Notes: a model not told the origin generated them from the sequence alone. 64,000 nucleotides of DNA from Candidatus Poribacteria bacterium (GCA_965261435.1 CBDHDL010000021.1:4379950-4443949), one strand, 5' to 3'; counted from the first letter of the stretch, positions 2,875 to 53,866 are shown. A program made the numbers and translations.

Positions 2875-3597
2875 TTATTCCGCGTCTTCGTCTTTACTGC
2901 GTCTACGTGAAATTAGCTCAGGTTCTGTTCTTTCTTCTTCTTCTTCGGTAGTATCTTCAGTTCCTTCTTCAGTTCCTTCACCTTCTTCGCCTTCCTCACC
3001 CTCTTCGCCTTCTTCAGGTTCTTCTACCTCTTCAATCTGTACCCGTGGGTGACTGACAGACACAATCATTCGGTTCGGTTCATCTAAGACTTCAATTTCT
3101 TCGTCCAATTCAATATCTTGAACATAGATGATGTCACCTACTTCCATGTTTGTCACATCAACAGTTATGTCGTTAGGCATAATTGCTGGTAGGCAATTAA
3201 GTGTTAAGTTCCGGAGAGGAAATTCAATTACACCGCCATCTTGAGCACCCGCAGGTGTACCAACCAATAGGAGCGGAACTGTGGAGGTCACAGGTTCATC
3301 TAAAGAGATGCGAACGAAATCAGCATGTAATAAAACATGCTTCTCTACCGGATCGCGTTGTATCTCTTTAATGAGAACTGGTTCAGTCCTACCCTCTTCA
3401 ACTTCTATGTTTATGATGACATTTTCACCATATTTTCTTAGGAACTGTTTGAACAAACGCTCATTGACCTGTAGTGCGATAGAGTCCTGTTTCCGTCCAT
3501 ACACGACCGCAGGTACATCGCCTGCCCGACGGATCGCCCGGGCGTTCTGTTTGCCAAATACATTCCTATGCTGAACTTCTAAGTTTGCTTGTTGCAT
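2875..3597 (-). CDS. rplY: 50S ribosomal protein L25 / general stress protein Ctc, with an acidic Glu/Gly-rich C-terminal tail
   Basis: MQQANLEVQHRNVFGKQNARAIRRAGDVPAVVYGRKQD is the L25/Ctc N-terminal domain. The last ~60 aa are poly-E/G ('EEGEEGEEGEEGEG'). Ctc lying next to pth and ispE is a conserved arrangement. Confidence 0.85.
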   Translation of the reverse strand: MQQANLEVQHRNVFGKQNARAIRRAGDVPAVVYGRKQDSIALQVNERLFKQFLRKYGENVIINIEVEEGRTEPVLIKEIQRDPVEKHVLLHADFVRISLDEPVTSTVPLLLVGTPAGAQDGGVIEFPLRNLTLNCLPAIMPNDITVDVTNMEVGDIIYVQDIELDEEIEVLDEPNRMIVSVSHPRVQIEEVEEPEEGEEGEEGEEGEGTEEGTEDTTEEEEERTEPELISRRRSKDEDAE

Positions 3598-3628
3598 TGT
3601 TCTTCAAAACCCTTAATCTAAAGTGAAA

Positions 3629-3700
3629 CAGGGCGGGTAGGATTCGAACCTACGCATGCAGGTTCCAAAGACCTGTGCCTTACCGCTTGGCCACCGCCCT
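3629..3700 (-). tRNA. tRNA-Gln (anticodon UUG)
   Basis: The reverse complement folds as a cloverleaf: acceptor AGGGCGG/CCGCCCT, anticodon stem CAGGT/ACCTG with loop CTTTGGA (anticodon TTG), T-arm GTAGG-TTCGAAT-CCTAC. CCA is not encoded. Confidence 0.8.
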
Positions 3701-4591
3701 TCAATTGTAAATATGCACGCCAACTGGACTGGTTTTTGTTGTCATGCAAAAACTATATGTACTATTGAAGTGTGTTTGACAACGATCAGCAGCTGAAATG
3801 TCTCGCATAAGAGCAAAAATGGTACTACCACTCCCTGACATCAAAGCACCTAAAGACCCAACTTGCGTAGAGAGTTGAGTTTTAAGTTCCAAAAGTACTG
3901 GATGCTTTGAAAAAACTGGTATTTCAAGGACATTAAATAAAGTGTTACCTATCCCGTCAATATCACCCTTCTCAACACAATTCTTAATAATTATACTTTC
4001 TTTTGTTTGCTTTGTCAAGGGAATATGCAAGTTGCTGAATATGTCAGCAGTGGATATAGGTAATCCAGGATTTATGAGCACGAGAGGAATGTCTGGGATT
4101 GATTGCAACGGAGTCAAAATGTCACCTATCCCAGTTCCAAATGCAGTGCCACCGAGTATGCAAAATGGGACATCAGCCCCTAAATATGAGCCAATATCCA
4201 TCAAAGTATCTATTCCGATTTTGAATGAAAACAACTCATTAATACCGAGTAGAACTGCAGCGGCATTCGCGCTGCCACCACCAAGACCAGCAGAAACAGG
4301 AATCCGTTTCTCAATCGATATCTCAACACCACTGAAACCCCCCACAATATCATTTAATGATTGTGCTGCTTTATAAGCAAGGTTCTTCTGTCCAGACGGT
4401 ACATCAGGATGATTACATTGAACTATTATACCTTTATTTGGTCGTTCAGATATGATTATATCATCATACAACCCAATGGACTGGAAAACAGTTTCAAGGT
4501 TGTGATAACCATCTTCACGCTTTCCGATGACATTGAGAAATAAATTTACTTTAGCATAGGCGCGTATACGTAAGTCCTGCAGTTTCCGCAT
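3701..4591 (-). CDS. ispE: 4-diphosphocytidyl-2-C-methyl-D-erythritol kinase
   Basis: 'RAYAKVNLFLNVIGKREDGYHNLETVFQSI' is the IspE / GHMP-kinase N-terminal signature, with GHMP motifs downstream (PVSAGLGGGSANAAA). Confidence 0.85.
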   Translation of the reverse strand: MRKLQDLRIRAYAKVNLFLNVIGKREDGYHNLETVFQSIGLYDDIIISERPNKGIIVQCNHPDVPSGQKNLAYKAAQSLNDIVGGFSGVEISIEKRIPVSAGLGGGSANAAAVLLGINELFSFKIGIDTLMDIGSYLGADVPFCILGGTAFGTGIGDILTPLQSIPDIPLVLINPGLPISTADIFSNLHIPLTKQTKESIIIKNCVEKGDIDGIGNTLFNVLEIPVFSKHPVLLELKTQLSTQVGSLGALMSGSGSTIFALMRDISAADRCQTHFNSTYSFCMTTKTSPVGVHIYN

Positions 4592-9898: not shown

Positions 9899-10088
9899 AG
9901 TTGTAAAACCAAATTCCTTTATTTATAAGCGTCAAATCACAATCAAAATTATATTTAATATTAACCTATTGTGCTGATGCTGTCAAGAATTTTGTTTTAT
10001 AAGCAAAAAATAATCTGATTATGCAACATTACACACCCACCGCCATTTTCCCTTTGACTCCCACCGCAAAACCTGCTAACATACCCCC

Positions 10089-10277
10089 ATGCCACAACTC
10101 AAGCTAAAACCGACTCACAAACCAGTCCGAGACTACTACGCCACTTTACAACAATACGAACAGCACGGTGTGACACACGAAGGCGCAGTCAGCGCGCCTT
10201 TTGAAACGTTTCGATTTTACCAGACGCAACAATATACAGTAGAAAAAATGTTACTATTTTTTATTGATATAGTATAA
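10089..10277 (+). pseudogene. N-terminal remnant (~41 aa) of a large Type IIG/ISP-like helicase/methylase restriction-modification enzyme
   Basis: 'KPTHKPVRDYYATLQQYEQHGVTHEGAVSAPFETF' resembles the conserved N-terminus of large N6-methylase RM fusion proteins. The frame then degenerates ('RFYQTQQYTVEKM...*') around 10212. A TTGACT-17-TAACAT promoter-like sequence lies just upstream. Confidence 0.4.
10253..10273 (+). repeat. 21-bp direct repeat ACTAyTTTTTATTGATATAGT (left copy)
   Basis: 20 of 21 nt identical to 14425-14445. The two copies bracket the RM pair, the IIG C-fragment and the GmrSD pseudogene. Confidence 0.75.
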
Positions 10278-10334
10278 TATGATAATGGATAATTGACTGA
10301 AGTCATTATCAAAAATGTCAAGTAGAGGGGAATT

Positions 10335-11252
10335 ATGTCAATACATAACAGCGAAAATAAAAAAACAGATCTTAATAGAGAAAGAAAAGTTAAGAACCGA
10401 AAAGAAAAAGAAGCCACTCGCGGAAAGCATTATTACGCAAATGCCAACGACTTTAGTAAGAAAAATAATCTGCTACCTGCCGAGTTTACAAATGAAATTA
10501 TCTGTGGCGATTCACAGGTCGTCCTCAAGCAACTACCAGACAATTGTATTGATCTTATTTTTACTTCACCACCCTACAATTTTGGATTGGATTACGAACA
10601 AACCGAAGATGCCTTTGCATGGGATTCCTACTTCAAGTTATTGTTCAGTATCTTTGACGAATGTATCAGAGTCCTAAAATATGGGGGACGGATAATCGTT
10701 AACGTTCAACCCTTATATTCAGACTATATCCCAACACATCATCTAATTTCACAGTACTTTATGCGTAAAAAACTGATATGGAAAGGTGAAATTTTGTGGG
10801 AAAAAAATCATTACAATTGTAAATATACTGCTTGGGGAAGTTGGAAAAGCCCGTCAAGTCCCTATTTAAAATATTCATGGGAATATTTGGAAATCTTTTG
10901 CAAAGGGTCTTTGAAAAAATCGGGTGATCCGAAAAATGCAGATATTGACGCTGATTCTTTCAAAGAGTGGGTATATGGAAAATGGACAATAGCACCTGAG
11001 CATAAGATGAAACAGTTTGGACATCCTGCTATGTTCCCTGAGGAATTAGCAGACCGAGTGCTGAAACTTTTCAGTTTCAAAGGGGATGTCATTTTAGATC
11101 CGTTTGCAGGTGTTGGAACAACCTGTCTTTCGGCACTAATGAATCAGCGTTGTTATTTGGGTATAGATATTTCACCAGAATACTGCGAAACTGCAGAAGA
11201 TAGGCTACGAATCTTGATTAGCGCACCTACATCTACAGAGTCTTGTTTGTAG
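10335..11252 (+). CDS. beta-class DNA N4-cytosine / N6-adenine methyltransferase (Type II modification methylase)
   Basis: Motif IV 'IFTSPPY' comes before motif I 'ILDPFAGVGTT' (the PF01555-type order). Lys-rich N-terminus. Confidence 0.8.
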   Translation: MSIHNSENKKTDLNRERKVKNRKEKEATRGKHYYANANDFSKKNNLLPAEFTNEIICGDSQVVLKQLPDNCIDLIFTSPPYNFGLDYEQTEDAFAWDSYFKLLFSIFDECIRVLKYGGRIIVNVQPLYSDYIPTHHLISQYFMRKKLIWKGEILWEKNHYNCKYTAWGSWKSPSSPYLKYSWEYLEIFCKGSLKKSGDPKNADIDADSFKEWVYGKWTIAPEHKMKQFGHPAMFPEELADRVLKLFSFKGDVILDPFAGVGTTCLSALMNQRCYLGIDISPEYCETAEDRLRILISAPTSTESCL

Positions 11253-11265
11253 ATAATACATCCAG

Positions 11266-12006
11266 ATGAACATCCAAATGAAACTTTTCGAAACAAACAA
11301 CAATTCAGAATATGGGTCAGTAGACAATTTGGATTATGAGTCAGTCGTAGATATCTATACAGATAGTATACATTCAATGTATACTATGACTGCAGGACAA
11401 ATTCGAGGCGCAAAAGGTGATCTTGTAGAAAATTTAGTTGATGTTATTGTCAAATTAGCATGGCATGAAATTGGCGGTGAGAAGGACCGGTTAGATATAA
11501 AAAAACACACAGGAAGAATTTCTATTGATGAAGACTATGTAGAAGCCCTAACGCCTGAATATGTTAGAGATCACATTGAACAGAATAAGGGTAAATATAT
11601 TTATAAAGTTGAACTTGATAGAGCGGTTGAGATAGACAATAAGATAATTTTAGGTATAGAATGTAAGTCCTATATAGAAAATGCAATGTTCAAAAGGACT
11701 TTAAAGGATTTTGAATTGATCGTGAAACTGCTTTATCCAGATTTGCTTTTTTGTGTGTTTCAATTTGAAAATAGTCTGGGAGGGGACTACGGAAAAGTAA
11801 GTGAACAAAGACAATTAGGAAGCGAATCAACACATACGTTACTTTCTCACACACCATCGGTAGATTTAGAAATTATAACACTTCTTGATGGTGATAGAAA
11901 ATCAGATAGGCCAATACATAAACGGGAATATTTTAAGGAACTTCCAGTGGAAAACATAGAAATTTGTGTAAATAAATTTAGGAATATACTTAAACCTTTT
12001 GTTTAG
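11266..12006 (+). CDS. putative Type II restriction endonuclease (PD-(D/E)xK-like), partner of the upstream methyltransferase
   Basis: It starts 14 bp after the MTase stop. 'KVELDRAVEIDNKIILGIECKSY' fits a D...(E)xK nuclease core. No other family signal. Confidence 0.4.
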   Translation: MNIQMKLFETNNNSEYGSVDNLDYESVVDIYTDSIHSMYTMTAGQIRGAKGDLVENLVDVIVKLAWHEIGGEKDRLDIKKHTGRISIDEDYVEALTPEYVRDHIEQNKGKYIYKVELDRAVEIDNKIILGIECKSYIENAMFKRTLKDFELIVKLLYPDLLFCVFQFENSLGGDYGKVSEQRQLGSESTHTLLSHTPSVDLEIITLLDGDRKSDRPIHKREYFKELPVENIEICVNKFRNILKPFV

Positions 12007-12011
12007 CTGAA

Positions 12012-12644
12012 AAAACTTTCCTTCCCTTCTACACCTACAACGAAAACGGTACAAACCCAAAAGAGAATATCACCGATTGGGCATTGGCAGAATTCCGAAA
12101 ACACTACGGTGATGATACCATCAGCAAGTGGGACATCTTCCACTATACCTACGGCATCCTGCACCATCCGGAATATCGGGAAAAGTATCAAGCGAACCTT
12201 AAGCGTGATCTGCCGCATATCCCGTTTGCACCAGATTTTTGGGGTTTTGCTAACGCAGGCGCACAATTAGCAGACATACACGTTAACTACGAGTCGCAAC
12301 CGAAATATGATGGTCTCAAATATATTGAAACACCAGACATGCCGATAGATTGGCGCGTTGAAAAGATGAAACTCTCTAAAGACAAAACGCAGTTGGTATA
12401 CAATGATTTCCTGACGATAGACGGTATTTCTGCGGAGGCGTTTGACTATCGACTCGGCACGCGTTCTGCGTTAGAGTGGATTGTAGATCAGTATCGCGTC
12501 AAAACGGATAAACGGAGCGGAATTGTGAACGATCCGAATCGTGCGGATCAGCCACGGTATATTGTGGATTTGATAGGGCGGGTTATCACCGTCAGTTTGC
12601 AGACGGTTGATATTGTGGGCGCATTACCAGATTTAGGTGTCTGA
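12012..12644 (+). pseudogene. C-terminal ~210 aa remnant of the Type IIG/ISP-like RM enzyme (MTase-C / target-recognition region)
   Basis: The frame opens at 11994 inside the end of the preceding gene. 'ENITDWALAEFRKHYGDDTISKWDIFHYTYGILHHPEYREKYQANLKRDLPHIPF' matches the conserved post-methylase region of PglX/MmeI/Type ISP enzymes. The middle of the ancestral gene is missing. Confidence 0.6.
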
Positions 12645-12660
12645 ATCGCGGATTTTCACA
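12383..12660 (+). repeat. direct repeat copy 1 (3' end of the Type IIG-like gene plus 13 bp past the stop)
   Basis: Read directly from the sequence: about 91% identical to 14458-14737, and near-identical over the last ~110 bp. Confidence 0.85.
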
Positions 12661-12743
12661 GATTTCGTAGGTTTTTGTTGGGTTTCGTAAACTCAACCTA
12701 TTGGTGTAAACTTAAGGAAATTAAATCCATTTTTGGATGTCTT

Positions 12744-12773
12744 CAGTCCGGTAGGGACGATATGTTTATAGAA
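12744..12773 (+). repeat. short repeat element GTAGGGACGATATGTTTATAGAAA (copy 1 of 3)
   Basis: 'cagtccggtagggacgatatgtttatagaaa'. The same ~24-nt core recurs at 50843 and 50930. It contains the small hairpin GTCC(C/G)GTAGGGAC. Confidence 0.7.
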
Positions 12774-12824
12774 AGGTTCCTTTGGTAATTTCAATTTATG
12801 TCATAAATGGTTTATTGCGAAATT

Positions 12825-14350
12825 TCATATCTTATCACACTTCGCCATGTTACATGGTCTGCATAGCAGGGTTAAATTTTCCCATTCAGTTAATCCTCCT
12901 TGAGAATAAGGTTTAATGTGATCAGACTCAAGCTGCCGAAAACCTGCCACTCCTGAGAAAACTTGATCGCAGTCTGGGCATACATATCCACCACGGTTAT
13001 GGTTTAAATTTCTGCGAAAATATGATTCCTTCCATTCTATTGGAAAATATCGACTCTGGGGATCACATGTCGGAAGATTAGGGGGTTGTGAACTCAAGAA
13101 AGATTCCTTATTTAACAATCTTTGATAAAAGAAGTTTTGCCATGTCGCATTGTGTTTTTTGTCCTCGTTTACCTCCCCAACGACCCCTCTGTTCTGGATA
13201 ACCACCTTCTGTGCTAAGCCACTTAGTTCCAGCCTGTCGAGGTGCTCGGATAAACCCACCTATTGCATCCCATGCATCATGACTCAGATTCTTAGGGTCA
13301 AGTTCCAATTCAACAGCGGAACCTATCAACAAGGCAGTTTGTTTATATTTATCAACGCTCACTCCTGACAATCCGCTTCCAAGTATTACTTCAATCCACT
13401 TAGCAAAATTTTCAAAATCCTTTTCAAGTCCATTTCCGTATGTAGGGAAAATATTTTCTTTATTTTTTGTGTCGGTAAATTGTAGCTGCGCACAAAAAGT
13501 ATCAAGTGCTTGTTCTGTAGAACCATTAAACGTCATTGCAAGATGTTTCATCGTATCGGGAGTTGAAATTAGGTTGTTCAATTTTTCTCTATGAGAGAAT
13601 GCAAGATACCACAGAAACATTGCTGACGGAGTTTGTCCTTTTGCCTGTGCTTTTCCATCCCACCAGTCAATCCAATATTGTTCGGCGGCAGGAAATTGTC
13701 CCCAAGGATTTTCAACACCCTTTTCACGAGCAGCTTGCTATCATTCGTTGAGCAGATGACGTATCTGCATAAATACCCGCGAGTCGCACAAAATAAACAG
13801 ACTTAGACTCGCTGTAATATGATAGCCTTATATCTTGGGCGGTTAGAGGTGTGCCCCCTTCGTTGATACGTCTGAATATCTCAAGTTTTGTCCCAAGATC
13901 CAGACGCGGTGGTAAGTAAATAATTGTAAGTGGATAATCATTAAAAACTGTTTTAAATTTCTCGGGAAGCTCCGAGAACTTTTTCCCACTATAGTGGACA
14001 CTTTGTGGCGAAAGATAGTTGATGTCATCATCTGCGTCTAAACTAAATTCATCGTTTTCAAATTTCCGAATTGTATTCAAACGTTGCTGTCCATCAATGA
14101 CTTCAATTTTACGACTCTCTTGATCTTCTAAAAAAAAGAGGGCAGGCGTTGTCAGATTATTCAATAACGATTCAATAAATAGAGATTCTTTCCGCTGATC
14201 CCACTGTTCTGCATCACGCTGGTAATCGGGAATGATAATTCGTTTATTCTTTACACGACTATAATTGTTTCTACATTCTCGCTTTGCGTTCGAGTCGCGT
14301 CGCTAACGATTGGGGCAATGTTTTCAACGTTTAAACTCTCTGTGCTCATA
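12825..14350 (-). pseudogene. GmrSD-like Type IV restriction endonuclease (DUF262 + HNH/DUF1524), broken into at least 3 frames
   Basis: The ATG at 14350 gives MSTESLNVENIAP...VV* and then shifts frame to 'KRIIIPDYQRDAEQWDQRKESLFIESLLNN...DGQQRLNTIRKFE' (DUF262 motifs). A middle piece spans 13108-13620. The C-terminal piece 12825-13259 carries the HNH motif 'DHIKPYSQGGLTEWENLTLLCRPCN'. A TTGACA-18-TATTAT promoter lies at 14381-14410 on the minus strand. Confidence 0.65.
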
Positions 14351-14380
14351 ATCCTCTCCATTATATAAATTTCTCTTTAT

Positions 14381-14410
14381 ATAATACTATCTCTGGTTAT
14401 CGTGTGTCAA
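14381..14410 (-). promoter_or_regulatory. sigma70-like promoter (TTGACA-18 nt-TATTAT) for the GmrSD-like gene
   Basis: Minus-strand reading: ttgacacacgataaccagagatagtattat. RBS ggagagg precedes the ATG at 14350. Confidence 0.5.
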
Positions 14411-14424
14411 TCAAAAAGTTGGAA

Positions 14425-14445
14425 CTACTTTTTATTGATATAGTG
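14425..14445 (+). repeat. 21-bp direct repeat ACTAyTTTTTATTGATATAGT (right copy)
   Basis: See left copy. This copy lies 12 bp before the duplicated IIG 3' end. Confidence 0.75.
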
Positions 14446-14457
14446 CAAATTATCTAA

Positions 14458-14737
14458 AGACAAAACGCAGTTGGTATACAACGATTTTCTGACAATAGCA
14501 GGTATTCCAGCGGAGGTGTTTACCTATCGGCTTGGCACGCGTTCTGCGTTAGAGTGGATTGTAGATCAGTATCGCGTCAAAATGGATAAACGCAGCGGTA
14601 TTGTGAACGATCCGAACCGCGCAGATCAGCCGCGGTATATTGTGGATTTGATAGGGCGGGTTATCACCGTCAGTTTGCAGACGGTTGATATTGTGGGCGC
14701 ATTACCAGATTTAGATGTCTGAATCTCGGATTAGGCG
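14458..14737 (+). repeat. direct repeat copy 2: a second, diverged copy of the last ~88 codons of the Type IIG-like gene, plus stop and 13 bp
   Basis: ORF 14471-14722 'MVYNDFLTIAGIPAEVFTYRLGTRSALEWIVDQYRVKMDKRSGIVNDPNRADQPRYIVDLIGRVITVSLQTVDIVGALPDLDV' matches the end of 12084-12644 with several substitutions. Confidence 0.85.
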
Positions 14738-15027
14738 GGTTTCACCAAATCAAAGGTATGAATTTCATTAGGCATTCCCTGGATTTATTGGATTCCCCAA
14801 ACTCAACCTAACCTACACACGAAACTTTGCACAAAGAATCAGGTGTTATGTTCATTTGTGATAAAAAGTGCCAAAAAACCGAAAACTAAATAACCCTGGG
14901 GTGTGTAAAGTTTTTGTCACAATATGATTCTGGTACATAAAGTTCTCGTCAATAGAAATGTGAAATTAGCAACCTTTTCTGTCCTTAGTTTACAGAGCAC
15001 CTAATGGTTATGAAAATACCTTGAAAT

Positions 15028-16270: not shown

Positions 16271-17542
16271 TTACCATGTTCCATGCACAGGTGTTTCCAA
16301 TGCCTTCTCATATAGGTCTGACCATTCTTTTGTACCATCATCAAAAGTAAGTTCAAGCCGTGCTCCTGCAACATACGCCTCGCCGTTTCCAGCATTAAAA
16401 TAACTCAATCCATCACCAGCCATGTGGATACAACTGCCATCTGGATAAACTGCAGTTTTTATTATTCTCGGATGTGGGTGAATTGTGTATCCATCATCAT
16501 CCAATTCTTCTGATGGCACTCTATATTTTTCAATAGCATTCTCATCTAATTCAACACCTAAGCCAGGGACATCAGGTACAGAATGACAACCTTCTGTTAC
16601 TAGAATCGGTTCTGTCAGTAGATGATCACTGTAGAGATTTATGCAGGTAATTGCAGGCCAAGTTGCATGTGTCAGGACACTACCAAGGTGTGCTGCCCAA
16701 GTTGTCGTCAAACCGTTCCCAACTATCTGCAACCAGAACGGCATATCAGCTGCAGCACTGAGGTATCCATCATACATCGTCCGAGATTTACCGCCTCCAA
16801 TGACAAATCCATCACAGGCACCTTCACGAATAACAGTCGTATATGGCGGTGATCCGAAGTGCATTGCTATTGGACAGTCAACAACACTACGTATTGCATT
16901 ATTTCCTTCTACATCACCCTGGGGTATAGGAGATTCAAAAATTGCTACATTCGGGTGTGCGGCAAGTTTTTTCAATACTGGTATGGCAGTATCAGCATCG
17001 CGCAATGAACTGTTAGGATCCAAATCCAGTTTGAAGTCAGATGGAACAACTTCTGCCACTGCGTCTACCTGTTCAACAATATCCCACCATGGACGCGGTT
17101 TATTCTTAAAACTCGTATAGCCGTTCTCAACAGCCTCAGCAGCTTCTGCTGCCCAATTTTCCGGAGAAGAATCAATACTCCACCAAGAAATTGGTACATC
17201 ATCACGACACTTGTTCCCAAGAATTTGGTAAACGGGTACTTCCATGATCTTTCCAACAACATCAAAGAGTGCCATTTGCAAACCAGCACCCAAAGAATCA
17301 TCATTCATGAGTTCGGCAGGACTTTCTCCGAGAACGCGATTCACGCTGTTTTCTGACACGCGACTATAGGTATAATGAATTACAGTCTCACCCCAACCGA
17401 TATGTCCAGTATCTGTTGTAACCTTACACAATTCAAGTAGAGACCAGTTGTAAACTGTTGAGACACTTTGAGTCGTGATTTCTTGTTGACGCGGTGTAAA
17501 TGGAACATCAACTAAAGTACGTTCAATATTAGTAACTTTCAT
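16271..17542 (-). CDS. enolase-superfamily enzyme (MR/MLE family), extended 423-aa form
   Basis: N-terminal capping domain, a 'FKNK' KxK motif and a barrel-domain acidic triad pattern. Confidence 0.65.
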   Translation of the reverse strand: MKVTNIERTLVDVPFTPRQQEITTQSVSTVYNWSLLELCKVTTDTGHIGWGETVIHYTYSRVSENSVNRVLGESPAELMNDDSLGAGLQMALFDVVGKIMEVPVYQILGNKCRDDVPISWWSIDSSPENWAAEAAEAVENGYTSFKNKPRPWWDIVEQVDAVAEVVPSDFKLDLDPNSSLRDADTAIPVLKKLAAHPNVAIFESPIPQGDVEGNNAIRSVVDCPIAMHFGSPPYTTVIREGACDGFVIGGGKSRTMYDGYLSAAADMPFWLQIVGNGLTTTWAAHLGSVLTHATWPAITCINLYSDHLLTEPILVTEGCHSVPDVPGLGVELDENAIEKYRVPSEELDDDGYTIHPHPRIIKTAVYPDGSCIHMAGDGLSYFNAGNGEAYVAGARLELTFDDGTKEWSDLYEKALETPVHGTW

Positions 17543-17790
17543 AAAAGACTCCTTAAACAGTGAAATAATGACTTAGTAATATCAGAAGTAGTCGTAACAG
17601 GAATTTATCAGAGAATAAGACTGATGTCAAGGTGTGTTATAGCAAAGAATGTGAAAATTATTAAGCTTTAAGAACTTCGGCTTGCTGGTTTAGATAAGAA
17701 AGAAGCAAACATACCAAGATTGAACTATCAACAGGGTTATTTAGTTTTCGGTTTTTTTGGACTTTTTATCACACCTGTAAATATCAGTTG

Positions 17791-17870
17791 TAGGTCGGGT
17801 AGAGCGAAGCGAAACCCGACACATTTGGTTTCTGTCGGGTTTCGCTTCGCTCTACCCGACCTACGTTATT
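17791..17870. repeat. long perfect hairpin / palindromic element (32-bp arms GTAGGTCGGGTAGAGCGAAGCGAAACCCGACA, 11-nt loop)
   Basis: The arms are exact reverse complements. Each arm also contains GTCGGG...CCCGAC. Related to 47883-47963. Confidence 0.85.
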
Positions 17871-18075
17871 TACTATCAGTAATAGAGAGCAACTGATAAT
17901 TCTTAAAACTAAATAACCCTGAACTATCAAAATCCTATATTGACAGAATCCAAATTCTATGGTATTTTGCAGGAGTAGCAAATAGAAAAGGTGCTTTTAG
18001 GTAGGCAAGTAAATATCAACCGCAGAGCAGAATCATTAAGATCTGCCCTGCACATTGTTATAAAATTGTTAGGAT

Positions 18076-33165: not shown

Positions 33166-33734
33166 GTTAGGCCCCTCGCTTTTAGCAGGACATTTGCTAA
33201 ATTTCTTTCATCATTACATTTGCTTTTACTAATGACATATTCACTACCATTAAATCTAATTTTTTCATGCATTAGTTTCCTATATTGTGATTTGTGAGTA
33301 CCACTACCGTGGAATAGAACAGGCACACAAGTTATAATGATCTTTGCTGGAACAACACTTTTCGCGTAATCAGCGCCGCCACGTAGTTGATCTGCCACAT
33401 CTTTTGCGCTTTTAAAAGTACCACCTTTGTTTTCGATTAAAACTATAACAAGTTGATCGCTGTTCGGACAGATGTAAAAGAGTATTTTGTCACAATGTTT
33501 CCCAGTACTTCCACGTGCATTAAAAGCAAGATCAACATCCACTACTACACGCTCAATTGGTAGTCCACTCATGTCAACACTACATTTATTGCTACTGCAG
33601 GAAGATGTTAGATTTTCTTCACCTACCCTCCTTCGTATTTCATTGAGAGTTTCACTCATTTTTATTTTCTGCGTCCTCATTAAGGAATTGCCGTTCAAGA
33701 TCAACGAAAGTATTATATAAGTGATCAGCAACAT
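33162..33734 (-). CDS. small protein with a PD-(D/E)xK-like nuclease motif; putative effector of cassette 1
   Basis: 'RVVVDVDLAF...CDKILFYICPNSDQLVIVLIENKGG' is a D...ExK core. Its start overlaps the ATPase 3' end by ~80 bp. Its paralog at 35325-35873 has the same architecture. Confidence 0.45.
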   Translation of the reverse strand: MLLITYIILSLILNGNSLMRTQKIKMSETLNEIRRRVGEENLTSSCSSNKCSVDMSGLPIERVVVDVDLAFNARGSTGKHCDKILFYICPNSDQLVIVLIENKGGTFKSAKDVADQLRGGADYAKSVVPAKIIITCVPVLFHGSGTHKSQYRKLMHEKIRFNGSEYVISKSKCNDERNLANVLLKARGLT

Positions 33735-35121
33735 CTTCGTAATCTTTCGGCTCTATACCTTCAATGCGATCAAAAGGTATCTCTTCTACAGGTTTATTAG
33801 ATTGAAACCACCATACACCTACTTCTTCTTTTTGCAATTTGTATGGTATTGCACCCGATTCACCATTGTGTTCTTTCAGTTCACCTTCACGAATTAGATT
33901 GGCGATTTGCTGAAGAAGCCAATCGCTATGCGTTGTTATTATCACACGAACTCCAGCTCGGACCAATCGCGCAAGTGCAACAGCAACCTGTGTTTGTGCC
34001 CTTGGATGCAGATGCGCTTCAGGTTCTTCAATGATGAGTGTATCACCAGGATTAACTAAACTTCGAAGGAATATTACTAAGGGGGTAAGTTCTGATACCA
34101 TTGAGGATGTCCTATTCATCTGTATTGCTTGTTTTGAGTGTTTTGGACAGAAAATGAACTGTGGATATCCGACACCAGCATGTCTGTTTACCATTATTTC
34201 CCCTTGCAAGACCTCGTTTTCGAGTATTTTTGATATTTCAGTTATTTCACTTGAAGACCGTTCACGATCATTGTAATTGATGATATGTTTGAGAAAATCC
34301 GCGATCACGCCAGTAAGCATGGAAATTTCTTGTGAGTGTGCCAATCCAGAACGAGTCGCACGATCCACAAGGCCACTTGTTATTACGCCATGTGTTTCCA
34401 TAATTCCACCTTGAATAGAAGGTAGAAAAAATGTATGGTGTCTTGGCAATTCCGACATTGAAATGCCTAATCGTGAAACTAATTCCAATATATCTGCTTC
34501 ATCTTTTGACTTGTCATTATTGCAGTAAGTAAAGACCATATCTTCGTTAATTTTCTTATTCGTAATGATACCAGACGCAGAACTATAACAATTTATAGAC
34601 CACAGAAATTGGCTCTCATCACTAATTCTTACCTCAAAATTCATCTCATCTTCAGAATTATTCGTGAATCTTCTCAATTCTTCTATGAATTCAAGGTCAA
34701 AACACCTTTTGAGTTCGGTTTCAATCACTTTCGAATTTTCCATATCATCTTTCAACAGTTTCTTAACTATCTGAGGTAAATCTGAAAACTTGAATGTTCT
34801 TCCTATAGTATAGAGTTTGTGAAATGCATCATGAATTTCTTTTTTCACACTGTTTGGATTTGGTACGGATTGATCCTGACCGATGTATTTGGATTCAAAA
34901 CTATGTGGAGTAAAGGGTATCCAAGGAATTCTTGAAAATCCCTCAAATGTCTGTTGTAATGCATAGATTAGAGTAGCAAGATATGTCTTACCAGTATTGC
35001 TTTCACCGACAAACACCGTCAGTGGACGCAAATCTATCTCTGCCTTCTCAATTGGTCCAAAGTTCTCTACTGCTATGTTGATGTTTAGGGGTTTTTGCGC
35101 TATCTCTTCGTGCATTGGCAA
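33652..35121 (-). CDS. ABC-type (AAA_15/AAA_21-like, OLD/PtuA/AriA-like) ATPase of cassette 1
   Basis: Walker A 'VFVGESNTGKTYL'; Q-loop region; 'SSMVSELTPL' signature-like; Walker B/D-loop 'TLIIEEPEAHLHPRAQ'; H-loop 'IITTHSDW'. 489 aa. Confidence 0.75.
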   Translation of the reverse strand: MPMHEEIAQKPLNINIAVENFGPIEKAEIDLRPLTVFVGESNTGKTYLATLIYALQQTFEGFSRIPWIPFTPHSFESKYIGQDQSVPNPNSVKKEIHDAFHKLYTIGRTFKFSDLPQIVKKLLKDDMENSKVIETELKRCFDLEFIEELRRFTNNSEDEMNFEVRISDESQFLWSINCYSSASGIITNKKINEDMVFTYCNNDKSKDEADILELVSRLGISMSELPRHHTFFLPSIQGGIMETHGVITSGLVDRATRSGLAHSQEISMLTGVIADFLKHIINYNDRERSSSEITEISKILENEVLQGEIMVNRHAGVGYPQFIFCPKHSKQAIQMNRTSSMVSELTPLVIFLRSLVNPGDTLIIEEPEAHLHPRAQTQVAVALARLVRAGVRVIITTHSDWLLQQIANLIREGELKEHNGESGAIPYKLQKEEVGVWWFQSNKPVEEIPFDRIEGIEPKDYEDVADHLYNTFVDLERQFLNEDAENKNE

Positions 35122-35328: not shown

Positions 35329-35873
35329 CTTAATAGTTTCTTCTGTAGTATCTTAGATAATTTTCCCCCGCAGCGGGCAGTAATAATTTCAGACGAGATA
35401 CCTTGAAAACTTATTTGTGATTTGATTTTTCTTAGATGTCTTATTTCGGCTCTACTTAAATGATTGTGATACAATATGGGAATGAAAATTGTTTTGATTC
35501 CTGATGAAACAAAACTTGCTGCATAAGCCGCTCCACTTTTTAATTGCATGACAGCCTTATCTGCCTCGGCATTCTTTCCACCTTTGAGTTCTATTGCTAC
35601 AACAACTAGTCTTTCGGATGAATCAAAATAAAAAATAATGCATTCACATTGACTCTTGCTTTGTTGTCCATGTGGAAATACTTTATCTAAATCTACTACA
35701 ACCCGTTCATTTTCTGATACTCCTGTCAAACCTACACTACAATTCCCTCTTTTGAATGAATTTTTTAAAAACAAGCTCTCTTTACCGATCTGTCCTCTTA
35801 TATTCTCTAATACCTCACTCTTGTTCACTCGTGTTAGCTCCTGCATTTTCTCTGAGTGAGGAACGAAGGTCAA
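35325..35873 (-). CDS. small protein with a PD-(D/E)xK-like nuclease motif; putative effector of cassette 2
   Basis: 'RVVVDLDKVF...CECIIFYFDSSERLVVVAIELKGGKN'. Likely true start at the internal Met (MQELTRVNK...). Overlaps the ATPase 3' end. Confidence 0.45.
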   Translation of the reverse strand: MTFVPHSEKMQELTRVNKSEVLENIRGQIGKESLFLKNSFKRGNCSVGLTGVSENERVVVDLDKVFPHGQQSKSQCECIIFYFDSSERLVVVAIELKGGKNAEADKAVMQLKSGAAYAASFVSSGIKTIFIPILYHNHLSRAEIRHLRKIKSQISFQGISSEIITARCGGKLSKILQKKLLS

Positions 35874-37278
35874 CAGAATGATTGTAGAGATCCTCTGCTA
35901 CATTTCCATAGTCAGGTGGTTCTATTCCATTAACAAGATCAAATTTAATCTCCTCTACAGGTTTGTCAGCATGAAACCACCATGCACCAACTTCTTCAGC
36001 AGTCAAATAAGTCGATGAATCTTGTTGTTTCTGCTCCATTCTCATCAATTCACCCTCGCGAACTAAATTACTAATTTGTTCAAGAAACCAATCACTATGT
36101 GTTGTAATTATAACACGAACTCCAGCTCGGACCAATCTCGAAAGTGCAATGGCAACCTGGGTTTGGGCTCTCGGATGCAGATGTGCTTCAGGTTCTTCAA
36201 TGATCAGTGTATCTCCGCATTTTACATATCTTCGCAGATACAAGACTAAAGGAGTAAGTTCTGATACCATTGAAGAGCATTGACTCATTCGAAGTGCAAT
36301 TTCTGATTGTTTTGGATAGTAGAGATACTCAGGATAACTAACTCCAGCAGGCTTGTTTATTTCAATTCTTCCTTGCAAGACTTCGGTTTCAAGGTATTTA
36401 GCAATGAAATCTATCTTATCTGATAAACCTCTAACTTCGTTATAATTGACGATCTGATTCAGAAAATCTACAATCATTCCCGAAAAAGTTGGTATTTCAG
36501 GGTAAAGTTCAAGTCCGACTTTAGTTGTCCGATTGTAGAGAGCCATAGTAATAATACCATGACTTTGCATGATACCACTTCGCGCAGCAGGTAGGTAGTG
36601 TGAACTTTTTTCTTCTCTTCTGTCTATTCGAAATATTCTTCTAAATTCGTCAAAATCAAGCGGCTCATGTCTACTTTTTCTGTTATCAGTATTAATAACC
36701 ATATCTCCGTTAATCAAACCGTATGCTGTGCTACCTGTCCCATTGTTCTGCATATCAAATGACCATAGAGTTTGGTTAACGTCACTAATATTTAGTGAGA
36801 AACTTAAAACATTGTTTGAGTCTCTTGCTGACCGAATTATCTCTGAAATTGTTTCTAAATCGTAATAGAGTCTAAGTTTCTCTTCAATAGAATCAGTTCT
36901 ATTAAGATCGGATTCCAACATAGTACGCACGCGCTCAGGTAAATCTGAGAATTTGAAGGGACGTCCATGAGTGTTTAATTTCTCAAGAATCTCAAAAATT
37001 TCTCTATCAAGTTTTTCCTGGTTTGATACTTTCCGAGCAACTGGACGGTAAGTAAAAGCTATATTTGATTGTAAACGGTGTGACGATGGAAATTGTGTGA
37101 AACCATCAAAACTTTTATGCAATGAATGAATTAGAGTAGCAAGATATGTCTTACCAGTATTGCTTTCACCGACAAACACCGTCAGTGGACGCAGATCTAT
37201 ATCTGCCTTCTCAATCGGTCCGAAGTTTTCAACTGATATGTTGATTTTAAGGGGTTTTTGATCTTTCTCTTCGTGCAC
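35815..37278 (-). CDS. ABC-type (AAA_15/AAA_21-like) ATPase of cassette 2; paralog of 33652-35121
   Basis: Same motifs ('VFVGESNTGKTYL', 'TLIIEEPEAHLHPRAQ', 'IITTHSDW'). N- and C-terminal thirds are ~90% identical at nucleotide level to cassette 1; the middle is diverged. Confidence 0.75.
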   Translation of the reverse strand: MHEEKDQKPLKINISVENFGPIEKADIDLRPLTVFVGESNTGKTYLATLIHSLHKSFDGFTQFPSSHRLQSNIAFTYRPVARKVSNQEKLDREIFEILEKLNTHGRPFKFSDLPERVRTMLESDLNRTDSIEEKLRLYYDLETISEIIRSARDSNNVLSFSLNISDVNQTLWSFDMQNNGTGSTAYGLINGDMVINTDNRKSRHEPLDFDEFRRIFRIDRREEKSSHYLPAARSGIMQSHGIITMALYNRTTKVGLELYPEIPTFSGMIVDFLNQIVNYNEVRGLSDKIDFIAKYLETEVLQGRIEINKPAGVSYPEYLYYPKQSEIALRMSQCSSMVSELTPLVLYLRRYVKCGDTLIIEEPEAHLHPRAQTQVAIALSRLVRAGVRVIITTHSDWFLEQISNLVREGELMRMEQKQQDSSTYLTAEEVGAWWFHADKPVEEIKFDLVNGIEPPDYGNVAEDLYNHSVDLRSSLRENAGANTSEQE

Positions 37279-38367: not shown

Positions 38368-41300
38368 TCATTCCCGAAACTTGTGCGAAAGTATCTTTGA
38401 CATACCAGCTTGTTCCATTGTTACACCATACATCACATCGGCGATCTCTGTAGTTCGATTGTTATGTGTAATAATTACAAACTGAGTGTTTTCGGAGTAC
38501 GCATTGATTAGATTTGAGAATCGCAAAACATTCGCTTCATCAAGTGCAGCGTCAACTTCATCAAGAACACAGAAAGGACTCGGTTTTAATTTGTAAACGG
38601 CAAAGAGTAATCCAATGGCTACAAGCGAACGCTCACCACCAGATAATTGTGTGATACTCTGTGGACGTTTCCCCGGAGGTCGCGCAATGATGTCTATACC
38701 AGATTCAAGTATATCTGATTCATCAGTTAACCTTAATTCTGTTTCTCCTCCACCGAAGAGTTGTGTAAATACTTCTTGAAAGTTAACTTTTACGATTTCA
38801 AACGACTTTAGGAACTCATCACGTGAAGTTTGGTTGATTTTCTTAATCGCTTGTTCTGTTGAGTGAATGGCATGTACAATATCATCACGTTGCTCAACTT
38901 GGTAATCTAATCTCTTTTGATGTTCTTTATGTGCTTCTATTGCTTTTAAATTTACTGGTCCTAATGCTGAAATTTCTGCTTTTAGTTTTTCAATTCTATC
39001 CATCAGATCAATTTCATCAAGTTCCAAACTTGCAAGTGCTGAAGATTTAGCTTCGTTTTCAGTATCATCATGATCAGAATCTGTCTTCTGTAATTCATCT
39101 ATAGACACTTGATACTTATCAAGAATACGATTTGTTATGTTTTTCAGTTGCATCTCAAGCTGCGTCGTTCTGACCTCAAGCTTCCTTCGATCCCGATTCT
39201 GTCTATCGAACTGATTTCGAGTCTTGCGTATTTCTTTCTGAAGATTCTCAATTTCCTGAAGTAGTGTTTCTCGATCCTCTTTTAATTCATCTAATTTTGC
39301 TTCTGCTTCTGCGCGATCCCCTTCAATCTGCAAAAATTCTCTTTGTGCTGCTTCTATTTTCTCTGATATATCGTGTTTTGATTGTTCATCAGAATCTATG
39401 ATCGCTTGTTGTTCTTCAATGATCTTAAGGATTTGCTGGTGTTGTTCATCAAAGTTAGAAATCTCCACTGTCATACTTTCAATCCTTTGGCGTTGTCCGG
39501 CAAGAAAGATTTCAACGCTTTGACATCTTTCTGTAACATCTTCAAGTTTACGCGTATCACTCTCCATCTGTTCAGACACCCTTTGAATCCAACGTTCTTT
39601 CTGATTCCGTTGTTTTGTCATTTCCTCAATTTCAGTTTTAAGTGTTTCGTATTCTGCACGTGTTGATTCAAACTTTTCCTGAAGTTCAAAGTTCTGTTTC
39701 TCTAATGCATTCAGTGCATTTCTTAGTCTTGTGATATTGTTGTCGGCTTGTTCAATATCTTTTAGGATTCCTGTCTTTTCAATCTGTTTGTCCTGTAATT
39801 GTCCAACAAGTTTTTGTCTGACAATTTGAGAATCGGCGATTATTGATGCATAAGACTTACTTTCTCTGTCCTTCTGATTCACAATTTTCTCTAACTCAAC
39901 AATCTTATCCTGAAGTCCTTCAAGTTCACGTGCGCGACGTAATAAACCACTCTTCTTTTTGTCGTTATATCCACCTGTAATATCCCCTAATGTGTTTATG
40001 AGTTCACCTTCAATTGTAACCAATCTGGCATTATGGCGAAATCTCTTAGTTAGTGCGATTGCATCATCAAGGTTTTCAATGACAAGCGTATTCCCCAATA
40101 AATGTTGTATAGCAATCTCGTAAATATAATCATACTCAACTAATTCTTCTGCAATACCGACTACACCAGGTTCATCAAGTAGTTTATCATCAGAGAATGT
40201 TCTACGTCGAAGGGTATCAAGTGGAAGGAAGGTAACGATACCGGCGCGATGCTTCTTTAGAAAGTCAATCCCACCTCTAACATCCTGAGCAGTTTCCGCA
40301 ATCACATTTTGGATTCGACTACCAAGAGCAACTTCAATCGCAACTTCAAAATCAGTATCCGTATTTATCAACTCTGCAACGACACCACAAATCCCGCTAA
40401 ATTGCTCAGGATAATGCTCTTTCGCTTGCATAATAGCACGAACACCAGCGTAATATCCTTCATAGGTTGATTGTAATTGCTCTAACGATCTATATAGAGA
40501 AGTACTACTTCCTAATTTCTCTTGGTAACCGCGCATCTCGGAATCTATTTTTCGCAGGGCATTTTCCGTTTCCTTTATTTTTTCTTCAATCTTTTCCTTT
40601 TCAGTAGTAATCTGGATTATTTCTGACTCAATTTTTGTTGCAGAACTTTGGATGACTTCCCTTTCATCTGTTGCTGTATTCAATTCTAATTTCAGCGATT
40701 CAGTGTTTTCTTGAAGTTTGTCAAGACTGTCCTGTGAGTTTTTAACACTGTCTTCTATTGATGATCGTCTATTTTCACGTTTAGACAGTTCTAAAGTAAT
40801 TTCCTGCATTTCAGTCTGAGCATTCTGAATAGACTGTTTAGTCTTTTCAACACTCGATGTTAATTCATTTAAGACCTGTCTACGAGCAGATAAACGACTA
40901 TCTTCAATCTTCAATGAAGACTCCAGCTTTTTCTGTTCTTGAATTCGTTGGCGTTTAAGAGACTGCAAGTCAGTAAGCTCACTATTTCTTTCTTCAAGTG
41001 CCTGTATTGCCCTCTGTCTCTGTTGATTAATATTCAGTTGTCGTTCTTTTTCAAGGACTATCTGTCTTTCAACTGTCTCACTTTTCTTGTTTATCTCTCT
41101 GATTTCTTCTTCAGCAGCAGATATCGCAGCGTCAAGTTCTGCTCTTCTATGGGTCTCACTCTCAATTTTCTCATCTGATTCTTGTATATGTTGATTTGCA
41201 TCGGAAACTTCGTTTTGAATAGCATCTAATTTTTTCTGTAATTCGTTATAATCCGAGGCATGTTGTGCATAGTTGCGATATGCTGAACCGAGTTCTAATT

Positions 41301-47747: not shown

Positions 47748-47882
47748 TTCTACTTTATTGGATTTATTGAGAAACAAGATAAACTGTTCAAATTATGGTC
47801 AATACTGTCCAAATTGTGACATAGTGTGTGATATTGAGATTGTTTAATGTTATAACACTTGTGGACTGTCCAATCTTAACTT

Positions 47883-47963
47883 GTAGGTCGGGTAGAGGAA
47901 CGAAACCCGACATGATAGACATAATCATTACGTGTCGGGTTTCGTTCCTCTACCCGACCTACT
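47883..47963. repeat. long perfect hairpin / palindromic element (30-bp arms GTAGGTCGGGTAGAGGAACGAAACCCGACA, 20-nt loop); paralog of 17791-17870
   Basis: The arms are exact reverse complements. They differ from the 17791 copy by compensatory changes on both arms (CGAAGCG versus GAACG). Confidence 0.85.
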
Positions 47964-48058
47964 TATTTAGTCTGGACTATCCATTAGACATTATACTGTT
48001 TTCGCTTTTGGCATCAGATTTGCTCAGACATGAGCACATACATTAGAGGAGATACAAA

Positions 48059-50630: not shown

Positions 50631-50842
50631 AACACTTATCAAAATTACACACCTACCGAATATATTCGTATATTTACCATAAAACCATAAACCATCTCAA
50701 TTTTACACGTCTAAAATTTAATACAAACAAAGTTGTAATTCTAAACTGATAGTAACGACTTGTGCTAAATAACTTATTGTACAATTTTTTTCACATAAGT
50801 CCAATATTCAGTGAGTTTTCCTTATGACAGATAGGTTCTTTA

Positions 50843-50872
50843 GTCCCGTAGGGACGATATGTTTATAGAAAA
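50843..50872 (+). repeat. short repeat element GTAGGGACGATATGTTTATAGAAA (copy 2)
   Basis: 'agtcccgtagggacgatatgtttatagaaaaa'. Confidence 0.7.
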
Positions 50873-50929
50873 ACATTGAATACCCTCTCTTCAGTCCCGA
50901 CAAATGCCAAACGCGCATTTGGCGTTGAT

Positions 50930-50955
50930 TTGGTAGGGACGATATGTTTATAACA
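50930..50955 (+). repeat. short repeat element (copy 3, truncated)
   Basis: 'tggtagggacgatatgtttataacatt'. A palindrome gccaaacgcgcatttggcg lies between copies 2 and 3. Confidence 0.65.
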
Positions 50956-53854: not shown

Positions 53855-53866
53855 TTGGAGAGGTAT

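Follow-up and report, generated by a model that had tools for sequence, protein, structure and literature searches.

The window analysed here, a 64,000-nucleotide stretch of DNA from Candidatus Poribacteria bacterium (GCA_965261435.1 CBDHDL010000021.1:4379950–4443949), contains two long perfect hairpins, copy 1 (17790–17864) and copy 2 (47883–47962). These are very probably inverted doublets built from repetitive extragenic palindromic (REP) sequences, similar to the elements termed REPINs or bacterial interspersed mosaic elements (BIMEs), that is, non-autonomous DNA whose arms would be the substrates of a REP-associated tyrosine transposase (RAYT), a Y1/HUH enzyme related to the TnpA of IS200/IS605. 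This reading is based on the structure and covariation of the arms, on the existence of a multi-copy extragenic family, and on the finding that arms of the same type, some of them identical, bracket RAYT genes in other bacteria. The elements are a known kind of small mobile DNA, present here in the genome of a sponge symbiont, and not a new mechanism.

Each hairpin comprises a forward REP arm, a spacer and a reverse arm (inverted REP, iREP), and is enclosed in a longer palindromic unit, its shell. The parts are listed below with scores from the arm covariance model R1; loci used for comparison bear numbers of the form L005, and an arrow marks a putative cleavage position or junction.

17790–17821, plus strand: copy 1, forward REP arm, made up of GTAG, GTCGGGT, AGA, GC(GAA)GC, GAA, ACCCGAC and A; R1 score 55.7 bits over 17790–17820.
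17822–17832: copy 1, spacer and loop of the long hairpin, 11 nt, CATTTGGTTTC; L005, of the same shell type, has a similar spacer.
17833–17864, minus strand: copy 1, reverse REP arm (iREP), its plus-strand end being ...ACCCGACC↓TAC; R1 score 55.7 bits over 17834–17864 (minus strand).
47883–47912, plus strand: copy 2, forward REP arm, made up of GTAG, GTCGGGT, AGA, G(GAA)C, GAA, ACCCGAC and A; R1 score 41.5 bits over 47883–47911.
47913–47932: copy 2, spacer, 20 nt, TGATAGACATAATCATTACG, kept in related copies (L037 6535–6616, with variants in L037 at 166, L047 and L108).
47933–47962, minus strand: copy 2, reverse REP arm (iREP); R1 score 41.5 bits over 47934–47962 (minus strand).

The arms of copy 1, 32 nt each, are 100% complementary and enclose an 11-nt loop, and those of copy 2, 30 nt each, pair perfectly around a 20-nt loop, with the inverted repeat of copy 2 continuing outward to 47862–47983 at 84% complementarity. 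The two copies share the termini TTGTAGGTCGGGTAGAG on the left and CTCTACCCGACCTAC on the right, the latter followed 3′ by GTTATTTA in copy 1 and by TTATTTA in copy 2, and they differ internally, on both arms in mirror image, by AGAGCGAAGCGAA (copy 1) versus AGAGGAACGAA (copy 2). An earlier note, made from the sequence alone, had described a 32-bp perfect inverted repeat in copy 1, termini common to the two elements and mirrored internal differences between them, all of which the sequence bears out, the repeat of copy 2 being a perfect one of 30 bp. When the elements are folded as single-stranded DNA (ssDNA), free energies of −43.3 to −39.7 kcal/mol are obtained (z = −13.5 to −15.0), a stability reached by 0 of 200 shuffled sequences; the values for the two predicted long hairpins are −43.3 and −39.9 kcal/mol. 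The pattern GTCGGGT-N(5–30)-ACCCGAC occurs four times in the window (0.00 expected), and the arm covariance model finds exactly four strong arms there, at 55.7, 55.7, 41.5 and 41.5 bits.

Each arm, 29–31 nt in length, is itself a small, imperfect palindrome with unpaired stem positions. It consists of GTAG, a 7-bp stem (GTCGGGT/ACCCGAC), an internal loop (WGA/GAA) and an apical mini stem-loop, so that the second tier begins with AGA and closes with GAA, with GC(GAA)GC (copy 1) or G(GAA)C (copy 2) between them. The difference that the earlier note gave as CGAAGCG versus GAACG is the difference between these two apical hairpins, amounting to one apical base pair fewer per arm in copy 2; d(GCGAAGC) is a well-known, unusually stable DNA mini-hairpin. 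GTAG stands at the foot of the hairpin in all four window arms, and its conservation in the family-wide arm sets is preset by selection, all of these sets having been selected or anchored on it.

The pairing within the arm is maintained by covariation at both tiers. Among arms anchored on their left half only, with the right-hand partner left free, the variable position of the basal stem is C-G in 98, T-A in 173 and mismatched in 2. Of 107 distinct arm types, 90 have GAA on the 3′ side of the internal loop (the WGA of the 5′ side is preset by the search anchor), and the apical closing pair, which occurs as G-C, A-T or C-G, is of Watson–Crick type in 98 of the 107, compared with a mean of 31 and a maximum of 44 in shuffles. 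In an alignment of 44 arm sequences 98.2% of cells are paired, a value equalled by 0 of 500 shuffles, and shifting the partner by one to three columns reduces the pairing to 19–46%.

The unit that is conserved can be read from a set of 14 inverted doublets from Poribacteria loci and the window. Identical arms are present in only four of them (both window copies, L057 and L098), and the other ten mix arm subtypes. The doublet at L037 6535–6616, for example, has the outer flanks and spacer of window copy 2, with a left arm of GTTGGGT...ACCCAAC and a right arm of GTCGGGT...ACCCGAC, so the change is compensated inside one arm and mismatched across the long stem. Because so few doublets are identical-armed while the arm's own hairpin covaries, the conserved structure is the arm hairpin and not the long hairpin, as expected of a RAYT substrate.

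The two arms of a doublet do behave somewhat in concert, as has been reported for REPINs. In a re-pairing test, which mixes arms of different genomes, the mean edit distance within a doublet is 3.08 versus 4.37 for re-paired arms (P = 0.0036), and the four identical-arm pairs compare with 0.8 expected (P = 0.002); when the two window doublets are omitted, the distances are 3.64 and 4.79 (P = 0.022) and two identical pairs are left, which is not significant (P = 0.16). Both arms have also changed together within one shell type, with GCGAAGC twice in the window versus GCGGAGC twice in L005, and GGAAC twice in L057 versus GTTTAC twice in L098. For REPINs it has been reported that changes on one side of the hairpin are commonly compensated on the other, and that a ‘clover’ fold exists as an alternative, each REP then folding into a hairpin by itself (PMC3116915). 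The long perfect hairpin is the alternative fold of two like arms. The argument from compensatory arm substitutions made in the earlier note has to be revised: the mirroring is due to the same REP subtype occupying both arms, with one apical pair lost in each, and it does not extend to the ten non-identical doublets.

The arms belong to a large family. A scan of one genome per species with the pattern GTAGGTCGGGT-N(9–17)-ACCCGAC returned at least 119 loci; among the matches listed, approximately 23 come from Candidatus Poribacteria metagenome-assembled genomes (MAGs) with 39–47% G+C, and the others mostly from Proteobacteria, Nitrospirota and Binatia. At least seven loci come from the single MAG RHO2_bin_17. 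In approximately 149 kb of Poribacteria loci the covariance model gives 51 arm hits, and 43 of 46 arms lie outside open reading frames (ORFs) of at least 150 amino acids, though such ORFs cover 80% of the sequence. With these 51 arms and hundreds elsewhere, the repeated family suggested by the earlier note is real, and the possibility it raised that only two copies exist is contradicted. A literature search for the arm sequence produced unrelated primers only, and no report of REPINs or REP doublets in Poribacteria was found. The window shares 1.26 kb (10046–11307) at 96.6% identity with a contig (L037) of Poribacteria MAG p16x63bins.62, and its gene content, with WD40 proteins, a planctomycete-type cytochrome c and many MR_MLE, PhyH and GFO/IDH/MocA paralogues, fits Poribacteria, which places the window in a close relative of that MAG.

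Other arrangements of the arm were seen in these loci. Single arms at L049 570–604 and L067 4735–4769 are bracketed on both sides (GTAGGTCGGGT...ACCCGACCTAC), so that a REP can be read on either strand of a symmetric singlet with an 11-bp stem. In L039 (2711–4528), from RHO2_bin_17, two identical REP pairs stand 1.74 kb apart, the arms of each pair being in tandem and bracketed by GTAG...CTAC; the contig name indicates approximately fourfold the coverage of other contigs of this MAG, and a multi-copy element bounded by REPs may be present. The 307-amino-acid ORF between these pairs (3183–4106) has no Pfam hit and is not a RAYT. The sequence downstream of the copy-2-type spacer common to L037, L047 and L108 contains no transposase and represents a variant doublet whose right arm bears an insertion. 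In L046, from the same MAG as L037, a REP doublet (2678–2762) is located approximately 235 nt 5′ of an MR_MLE paralogue (3192–4013), and copy 1 lies approximately 250 nt 5′ of the start of the window's MR_MLE gene (16271–17542), which could be a coincidence or a preferred position.

RAYT genes were found beside arms of this type. The query was an E. coli RayT sequence, later validated by protein cluster P0041 (named RayT). RayT homologues are situated directly beside REPs with this core in three proteobacterial loci, in two of them between REPs, and the ORFs of the three loci score 188–198 bits on NCBIfam NF047646, the equivalog model ‘REP-associated tyrosine transposase’ (REP_Tyr_transpos; cut-off 80 bits). 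A metagenome scan for the Poribacteria-type arm GTAGGTYGGGTWGAG at 120–180 nt from the reverse-complemented RAYT motif NPV[KR]HG, a spacing set around the 150–162 nt measured in the three proteobacterial cases, yielded at least 120 loci on contigs of 34–70% G+C. The exact arm of copy 1 (31 nt identical) adjoins the RAYT motif in L127, and the arm of copy 2, with its loop type and a T/A stem variant, adjoins RAYT genes in at least eight contigs. Seven ORFs sampled from the metagenome loci all score 189–206 bits on NF047646; RAYT ORFs reach 24–28 bits on the IS200 model, below its cut-off of 55.

The usual gene arrangement is a forward REP, a RAYT of approximately 180 amino acids and a reverse REP; in L240, L241, L243 and L244 the forward arm ends approximately 35 nt before the ATG and the reverse arm begins 5–13 nt past the stop codon. 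REPs of this type flank RAYT genes in other taxa (L034, L081, L240–L244 and at least 100 metagenome contigs). Around these genes, as in the window doublets, GTAG faces outward, and a doublet accordingly resembles a RAYT locus with a short spacer in place of the gene. Named members of the RAYT clade belong to Desulfobacterota, Planctomycetota, Brocadiaceae and several cyanobacteria. The identity of the proteobacterial RAYTs of L034 and L081 to E. coli RayT, 45–52%, suggests that the clade corresponds to RAYT Group 2, one of the two groups linked to abundant REPs (Bertels et al. 2017, PMC5581495).

Some RAYT loci have further features. In a gammaproteobacterial MAG (L034, 785–1729), the RAYT gene (1031–1567) has four forward REPs, spaced 59–60 nt apart, ahead of it and two reverse REPs behind it, in an array that resembles a REPtron and shows tandem amplification in the manner of BIMEs. 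RAYT genes split by frameshifts occur in L081 (1158–1695, as ORFs of 67 and 129 amino acids) and in L124 and L220, where the HUH region is out of frame; either the genes are decaying or the assemblies are in error. One metagenome contig (L138, 1401–2591) has two RAYT-plus-REP matches approximately 990 nt apart, a tandem duplication of the whole cassette that is unusual in that RAYT genes are said to be mostly single-copy.

A mechanism can be proposed by analogy with E. coli, where the REP/BIME substrates are imperfect palindromes that have GTAG on their 5′ side and mismatched stem positions, form REP/iREP pairs and are cleaved at C↓T within CC↓TAC, and where TnpA-REP binds the imperfect hairpin as ssDNA only with the 5′ GTAG, requires the stem mismatches and performs a strand transfer proposed as a route for BIME spread and recombination (PMC3333891, PMC3479197). 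By the same scheme a RAYT would bind the arm hairpin and GTAG on ssDNA and would cut at C↓T, for example in GACC↓TAC of the inverted arm, a putative cleavage site present at 17858–17864 and 47956–47962. It would then transfer strands, and this could spread and recombine the doublets. Doublets with identical arms might be copied as a unit, and, more speculatively, those with mixed arms and the several shells might arise by recombination at the arms. Effects on transcripts, such as a barrier at the 3′ end, are possible and would be secondary. The REP or MITE-like element named in the earlier note (MITE, miniature inverted-repeat transposable element) was essentially right, as was its IS200/IS605-type recombinase hairpin: the arms are REPs of the RAYT type, RAYTs form a Y1 transposase clade related to IS200/IS605, and copy 1 additionally has MITE-type terminal inverted repeats with a target-site duplication.

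The outer parts of the two units, their shells, are as follows.

17732–17921: copy 1, full unit, shell 1, 190 bp, with perfect 17-bp terminal inverted repeats, CAGGGTTATTTAGTTTT at 17732–17748 and its complement at 17905–17921.
17723–17731: left copy of the target-site duplication, a 9-bp direct repeat, AACTATCAA.
17922–17930: right copy of the target-site duplication, the same 9-bp direct repeat, AACTATCAA.
47857–47987: copy 2, full unit, shell 2, approximately 131 bp, with imperfect outer inverted repeats CTTGTGGACTGTCCA and TGGACTATCCATTAG, common to L037 and L097.

Shell-1 termini are paired around REP doublets in five loci, the window together with L057, L098, L005 and L111, the units of the latter four measuring 207–623 bp. 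The 9-bp flanks of the other four units match at 8/9, 8/9, 7/9 and 2/9 positions, and over all five units 34 of 45 flanking positions match, a score equalled by 0 of 20,000 random placements. The copy 2 unit is 90% identical to L037 6509–6641, at a different locus in the close relative, and L046, L037 and L047 contain a third type of shell (TAACGTGAGTTTGATAAAT); inspection of the flanks gave no convincing target-site duplication for shells 2 and 3. Direct repeats of ISAs1 elements are approximately 8–10 bp long. With 17-bp terminal inverted repeats that start CAGGG and a 9-bp direct repeat, shell 1 has features of an ISAs1-derived MITE, the ISAs1 family being characterized by inverted repeats of 14–22 bp starting CAGGG (PMC11946415) and by direct repeats of approximately 10 bp (PMC11946415, PMC6305408). 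Movement of the IS200/IS605 and RAYT types leaves no target duplication (PMC3333891). Shell 1 therefore looks like an ISAs1-type MITE with a REP doublet as its core. Its inverted repeats and duplicated target site make it probable that copy 1 was last inserted by an ISAs1-type DDE transposase that acted on the shell, and not by a RAYT.

Several points weigh against regarding the doublets as RAYT substrates in this genome. At least copy 1 last moved by a mechanism unlike that of a RAYT, as its target-site duplication indicates. No RAYT was found in the window by the RayT search or by Pfam analysis of 53 ORFs, nor by tblastn in 20 Poribacteria loci (approximately 150 kb), and in two protein searches returning approximately 8000 RAYTs each none of the 120 listed was named Poribacteria; because no Poribacteria RAYT was identified, the elements may be orphaned or inactive in this lineage. 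The biochemical steps are all extrapolated from E. coli TnpA-REP, which is 45–52% identical to the L034 and L081 proteins. There are just two intact doublets in the window, and no empty or filled orthologous site was present among the compared loci (L037 and L046), so mobility is inferred rather than observed.

Several candidates were set aside. The doublet in L037 lies right beside the block of 96.6% identity, but synteny ends exactly there and no clean insertion polymorphism results, and that in L046 stands 5′ of a gene that is merely a paralogue (50–56% amino acid identity) of the window MR_MLE gene. The best long candidate for a Poribacteria contig with a RAYT, L144, encodes a chemotaxis receptor and a ribonucleotide reductase and is not evidently poribacterial; the tetranucleotide composition of RAYT contigs was ambiguous, the candidates not being separated from negative controls. 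A possible RAYT remnant at 14189–14281 (RAYT residues 53–85, E = 0.04) is without the HUH histidines, and the neighbouring weak matches fall in a duplicated remnant of a Type ISP restriction gene.

One alternative is that the elements are ordinary DDE-type MITEs: the outer shell would be what matters, the REP-like core would either be carried along with it or be palindromic by coincidence, and no RAYT would be involved in this lineage. The 17-bp CAGGG repeats and exact 9-bp duplication of copy 1, the flank matches of 7–9/9 in four of five shell-1 units and the lack of a RAYT in the Poribacteria sequence searched speak for this explanation. It is nonetheless improbable, since the arms far exceed the shells in conservation and are found in no fewer than three unrelated shells, as singlets and on both sides of RAYT genes of different phyla; shells 2 and 3 are without a convincing duplication; and the two-tier hairpin of the arm covaries, which is not needed in a passive passenger.

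Joined to the preferred interpretation as RAYT-type REP doublets, the shells allow a wider picture, which is offered tentatively and is rather unlikely to hold. In it, REP doublets would be modular cores, and three or more unrelated palindromic shells, one of them an ISAs1-like MITE with a target-site duplication, would either have captured such cores or have received them by repeated insertion. Two unrelated enzymes could then move the same small element, a Y1 RAYT by way of the arms and a DDE transposase by way of the shell. Near-identical arms accompany RAYTs on contigs of 34–70% G+C, and named RAYTs of this clade come from cyanobacteria, Desulfobacterota and Planctomycetota; such a range, with Poribacteria added to it, would imply either an unusually frozen RAYT–REP recognition code or horizontal spread of RAYT/REP systems, contrary to the prevailing view of almost exclusively vertical inheritance.

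The hairpins could instead be transcription terminators, or stabilisers of mRNA 3′ ends, located between co-directional genes and kept for that function. Both intact copies are indeed intergenic, each 3′ of one stop codon and 5′ of the next start of a co-directional gene; the hairpins are very stable and the T-rich TTATTTA follows the right arm; and REPs in E. coli can stabilise upstream mRNA. The features of the elements make such a role, as their main explanation, highly improbable. No terminator-like site is called at either element, and stems of 30–32 bp with loops of 11–20 nt contrast with the short G+C-rich stem and 3–8-nt loop of a terminator. There is no proper T-run, the tail being only TTATTTA, and the genes flanking copy 1 lie on the minus strand, for which the tail reads AACTGATATTTACAGG. 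What is conserved in the family tracks the GTAG foot and the arm hairpin, and 10 of the 14 doublets have no perfect long stem. No Rfam family applies; the Rfam search gave sub-threshold matches to eukaryotic microRNA precursors only, a generic signal of long hairpins. The simple bidirectional terminator considered in the earlier note is for these reasons not borne out.

In addition to the four strong arms, the window contains two relics.

About 14700–14898, minus strand: decayed third copy, with a shell-1 terminus and left flank CAGGGTTATTTAGTTTTCGG at 14879–14898 and a degenerate arm GTAGGTTAGGTTGAGTTTGGGGAATCCAAT at 14787–14816 (R1 score 6.9 bits).
12674–12712, plus strand: a reverse arm, truncated and on its own, GTTGGGTTTCGTAAACTCAACC↓TAT, with a flank beyond it that is common to L105 (R1 score 9.0–10.6 bits); it is the direct-repeat partner of 14784–14810.

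A last explanation would make the hairpins attC-like sites, or sites of another site-specific recombinase, connected with the insertion of gene cassettes in the window. It can draw on the two decayed REP arms at the edges of a 2.1-kb duplication or insertion in the patch of restriction-gene fragments, but it is hardly credible: the 53 window ORFs scanned include no integrase, tyrosine or serine recombinase, transposase or TnpB, the termini GTAGGT/ACCTAC are not attC core sites, and the intact copies do not border cassette-like ORFs. The integron attC-like substrate suggested at the outset falls with it, and the look-up of TnpA(Y1)/TnpB proposed along with it found no Y1_Tnp or TnpB within the window. 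The window elements, with their spacers of 11–20 nt and neither of these genes in the window, are also not autonomous IS200/IS605 elements.

The interpretation as RAYT-type REP doublets agrees with REPINs and their RAYTs (Bertels & Rainey 2011, PMC3116915; PMC5581495), which likewise have two inverted REPs, a short and less conserved spacer and a long predicted ssDNA hairpin, are extragenic, occur as singlets beside doublets, show mirrored changes and an alternative fold per REP, and share their REP type with the flanks of RAYT genes. The window elements differ from them in their Poribacteria host, in the lack of a RAYT found in the lineage, in the non-identical arms of 10 of 14 doublets, and in the nesting of copy 1 within a shell that has terminal inverted repeats and is flanked by a target-site duplication, a situation not described for REPINs.

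The arms also resemble the E. coli REP/BIME sequences acted on by TnpA-REP (RayT/YafM) (Ton-Hoang 2012, PMC3333891; Messing 2012, PMC3479197), with GTAG directly 5′ of an imperfect palindrome of approximately 30 nt, unpaired stem positions, a REP and an inverted iREP joined by a linker, and an iREP end, CC↓TAC, of the type mapped as a cleavage site (GACC↓TACA). The RAYTs of L034 and L081, at 45–52% identity to E. coli RayT, fall under the same NCBIfam equivalog model, which is also matched by the RAYTs that the window arm type flanks. Unlike the E. coli REPs, which have GCCGGAT-type stems, the window arms have the stem GTYGGGT/ACCCRAC and two tiers, with a WGA/GAA internal loop and an apical mini-hairpin, and there are no tandem BIME arrays in the window.

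Shell 1 shares with the ISAs1 family a terminal inverted repeat that starts at CAGGG, of 17 bp compared with 14–22 bp (PMC11946415), and has a direct repeat of 9 bp compared with 10 bp in ISAs1 examples. Like MITEs derived from DDE elements, it is too short, at 190 bp, for a transposase gene. It differs from ISAs1 in that neither an ISAs1 transposase nor a full-length partner with shell-1 termini was present in the loci compared, no dedicated search having been made, and from MITEs in that its core is a RAYT-type REP doublet. To our knowledge, such a doublet has not been described as the core of a MITE. With IS200/IS605 and its palindrome-associated miniature derivatives, finally, the arms share a hairpin and a 5′ guide tetranucleotide recognised on ssDNA by a Y1 HUH enzyme, and they are without terminal inverted repeats; the differences are that neither tnpA nor tnpB is in or near the window elements and that the associated enzymes are RAYTs (189–206 bits, with 24–28 versus the cut-off of 55 on the IS200 model).

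Almost all work on REP/RAYT systems has concerned Enterobacteria and Pseudomonas, and the present elements extend the known range of REP-type elements to Candidatus Poribacteria, uncultivated sponge symbionts. For annotation, the hairpins should be labelled REP/REPIN-type repeats, not terminators or attC sites. The doublets are a ready marker for strain typing and for spotting points of rearrangement in Poribacteria MAGs. The arm model, comprising GTAG, a covarying 7-bp stem, the WGA/GAA loop and the apical mini-hairpin, is a compact and testable definition of the substrate of a RAYT clade that is apparently widespread in environmental bacteria. Two further points add modest interest: the ISAs1-like MITE nesting, in which a REP doublet within a shell of terminal inverted repeats would, if general, show two classes of small mobile DNA combining, and the near-identical arms beside RAYTs across contigs of very different composition.

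The relics are located in a patchwork of restriction and defence genes (10335–14900), which comprises an N6/N4 DNA methylase (10335–11252), the C-terminal half only of a Type ISP enzyme (12084–12644), an HNH endonuclease (12825–13259) and an N-terminal fragment of GmrSD (13724–14164). A 286-nt direct repeat (12369–12654 and 14447–14732, 92% identical) is followed in each copy by a decayed REP arm (12674–12700 and 14784–14810), beyond which the copies diverge, so that a 2.1-kb duplication or insertion has REP arms at its edge, perhaps marking a junction of REP-mediated recombination.

A second small repeat family, at 50839–50953, consists of the unit CTT(C/T)AGTCCCGTAGGGACGATATGTTTATA present twice, the second copy being interrupted, exactly within its GTCCCG↓TAGGGAC hairpin, by 34 nt of inserted palindromic sequence, ACAAATGCCAAACGCGCATTTGGCGTTGATTTGG. 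In L035, L060, L111 and L119 this 34-nt motif is found between REP arms. The GTCCC-GTA-GGGAC unit comes after the REP relic too, at 12713–12790, and does so again in L105. The insert resembles a further tiny mobile palindrome that inserts at a precise site. The cluster is situated in the gap after the first of four consecutive MacB/FtsX-type permease paralogues (49329–50630, 51413–52408, 52553–53854 and 53855–55183), which are followed by a HlyD-type membrane-fusion protein (55288–57174). Two adjacent AAA_15/AAA_21 ATPase genes on the minus strand (33652–35121 and 35815–37278), of a kind frequent in abortive-infection or OLD-type defence, adjoin the gene of a 1200-amino-acid SMC protein (38368–41970).

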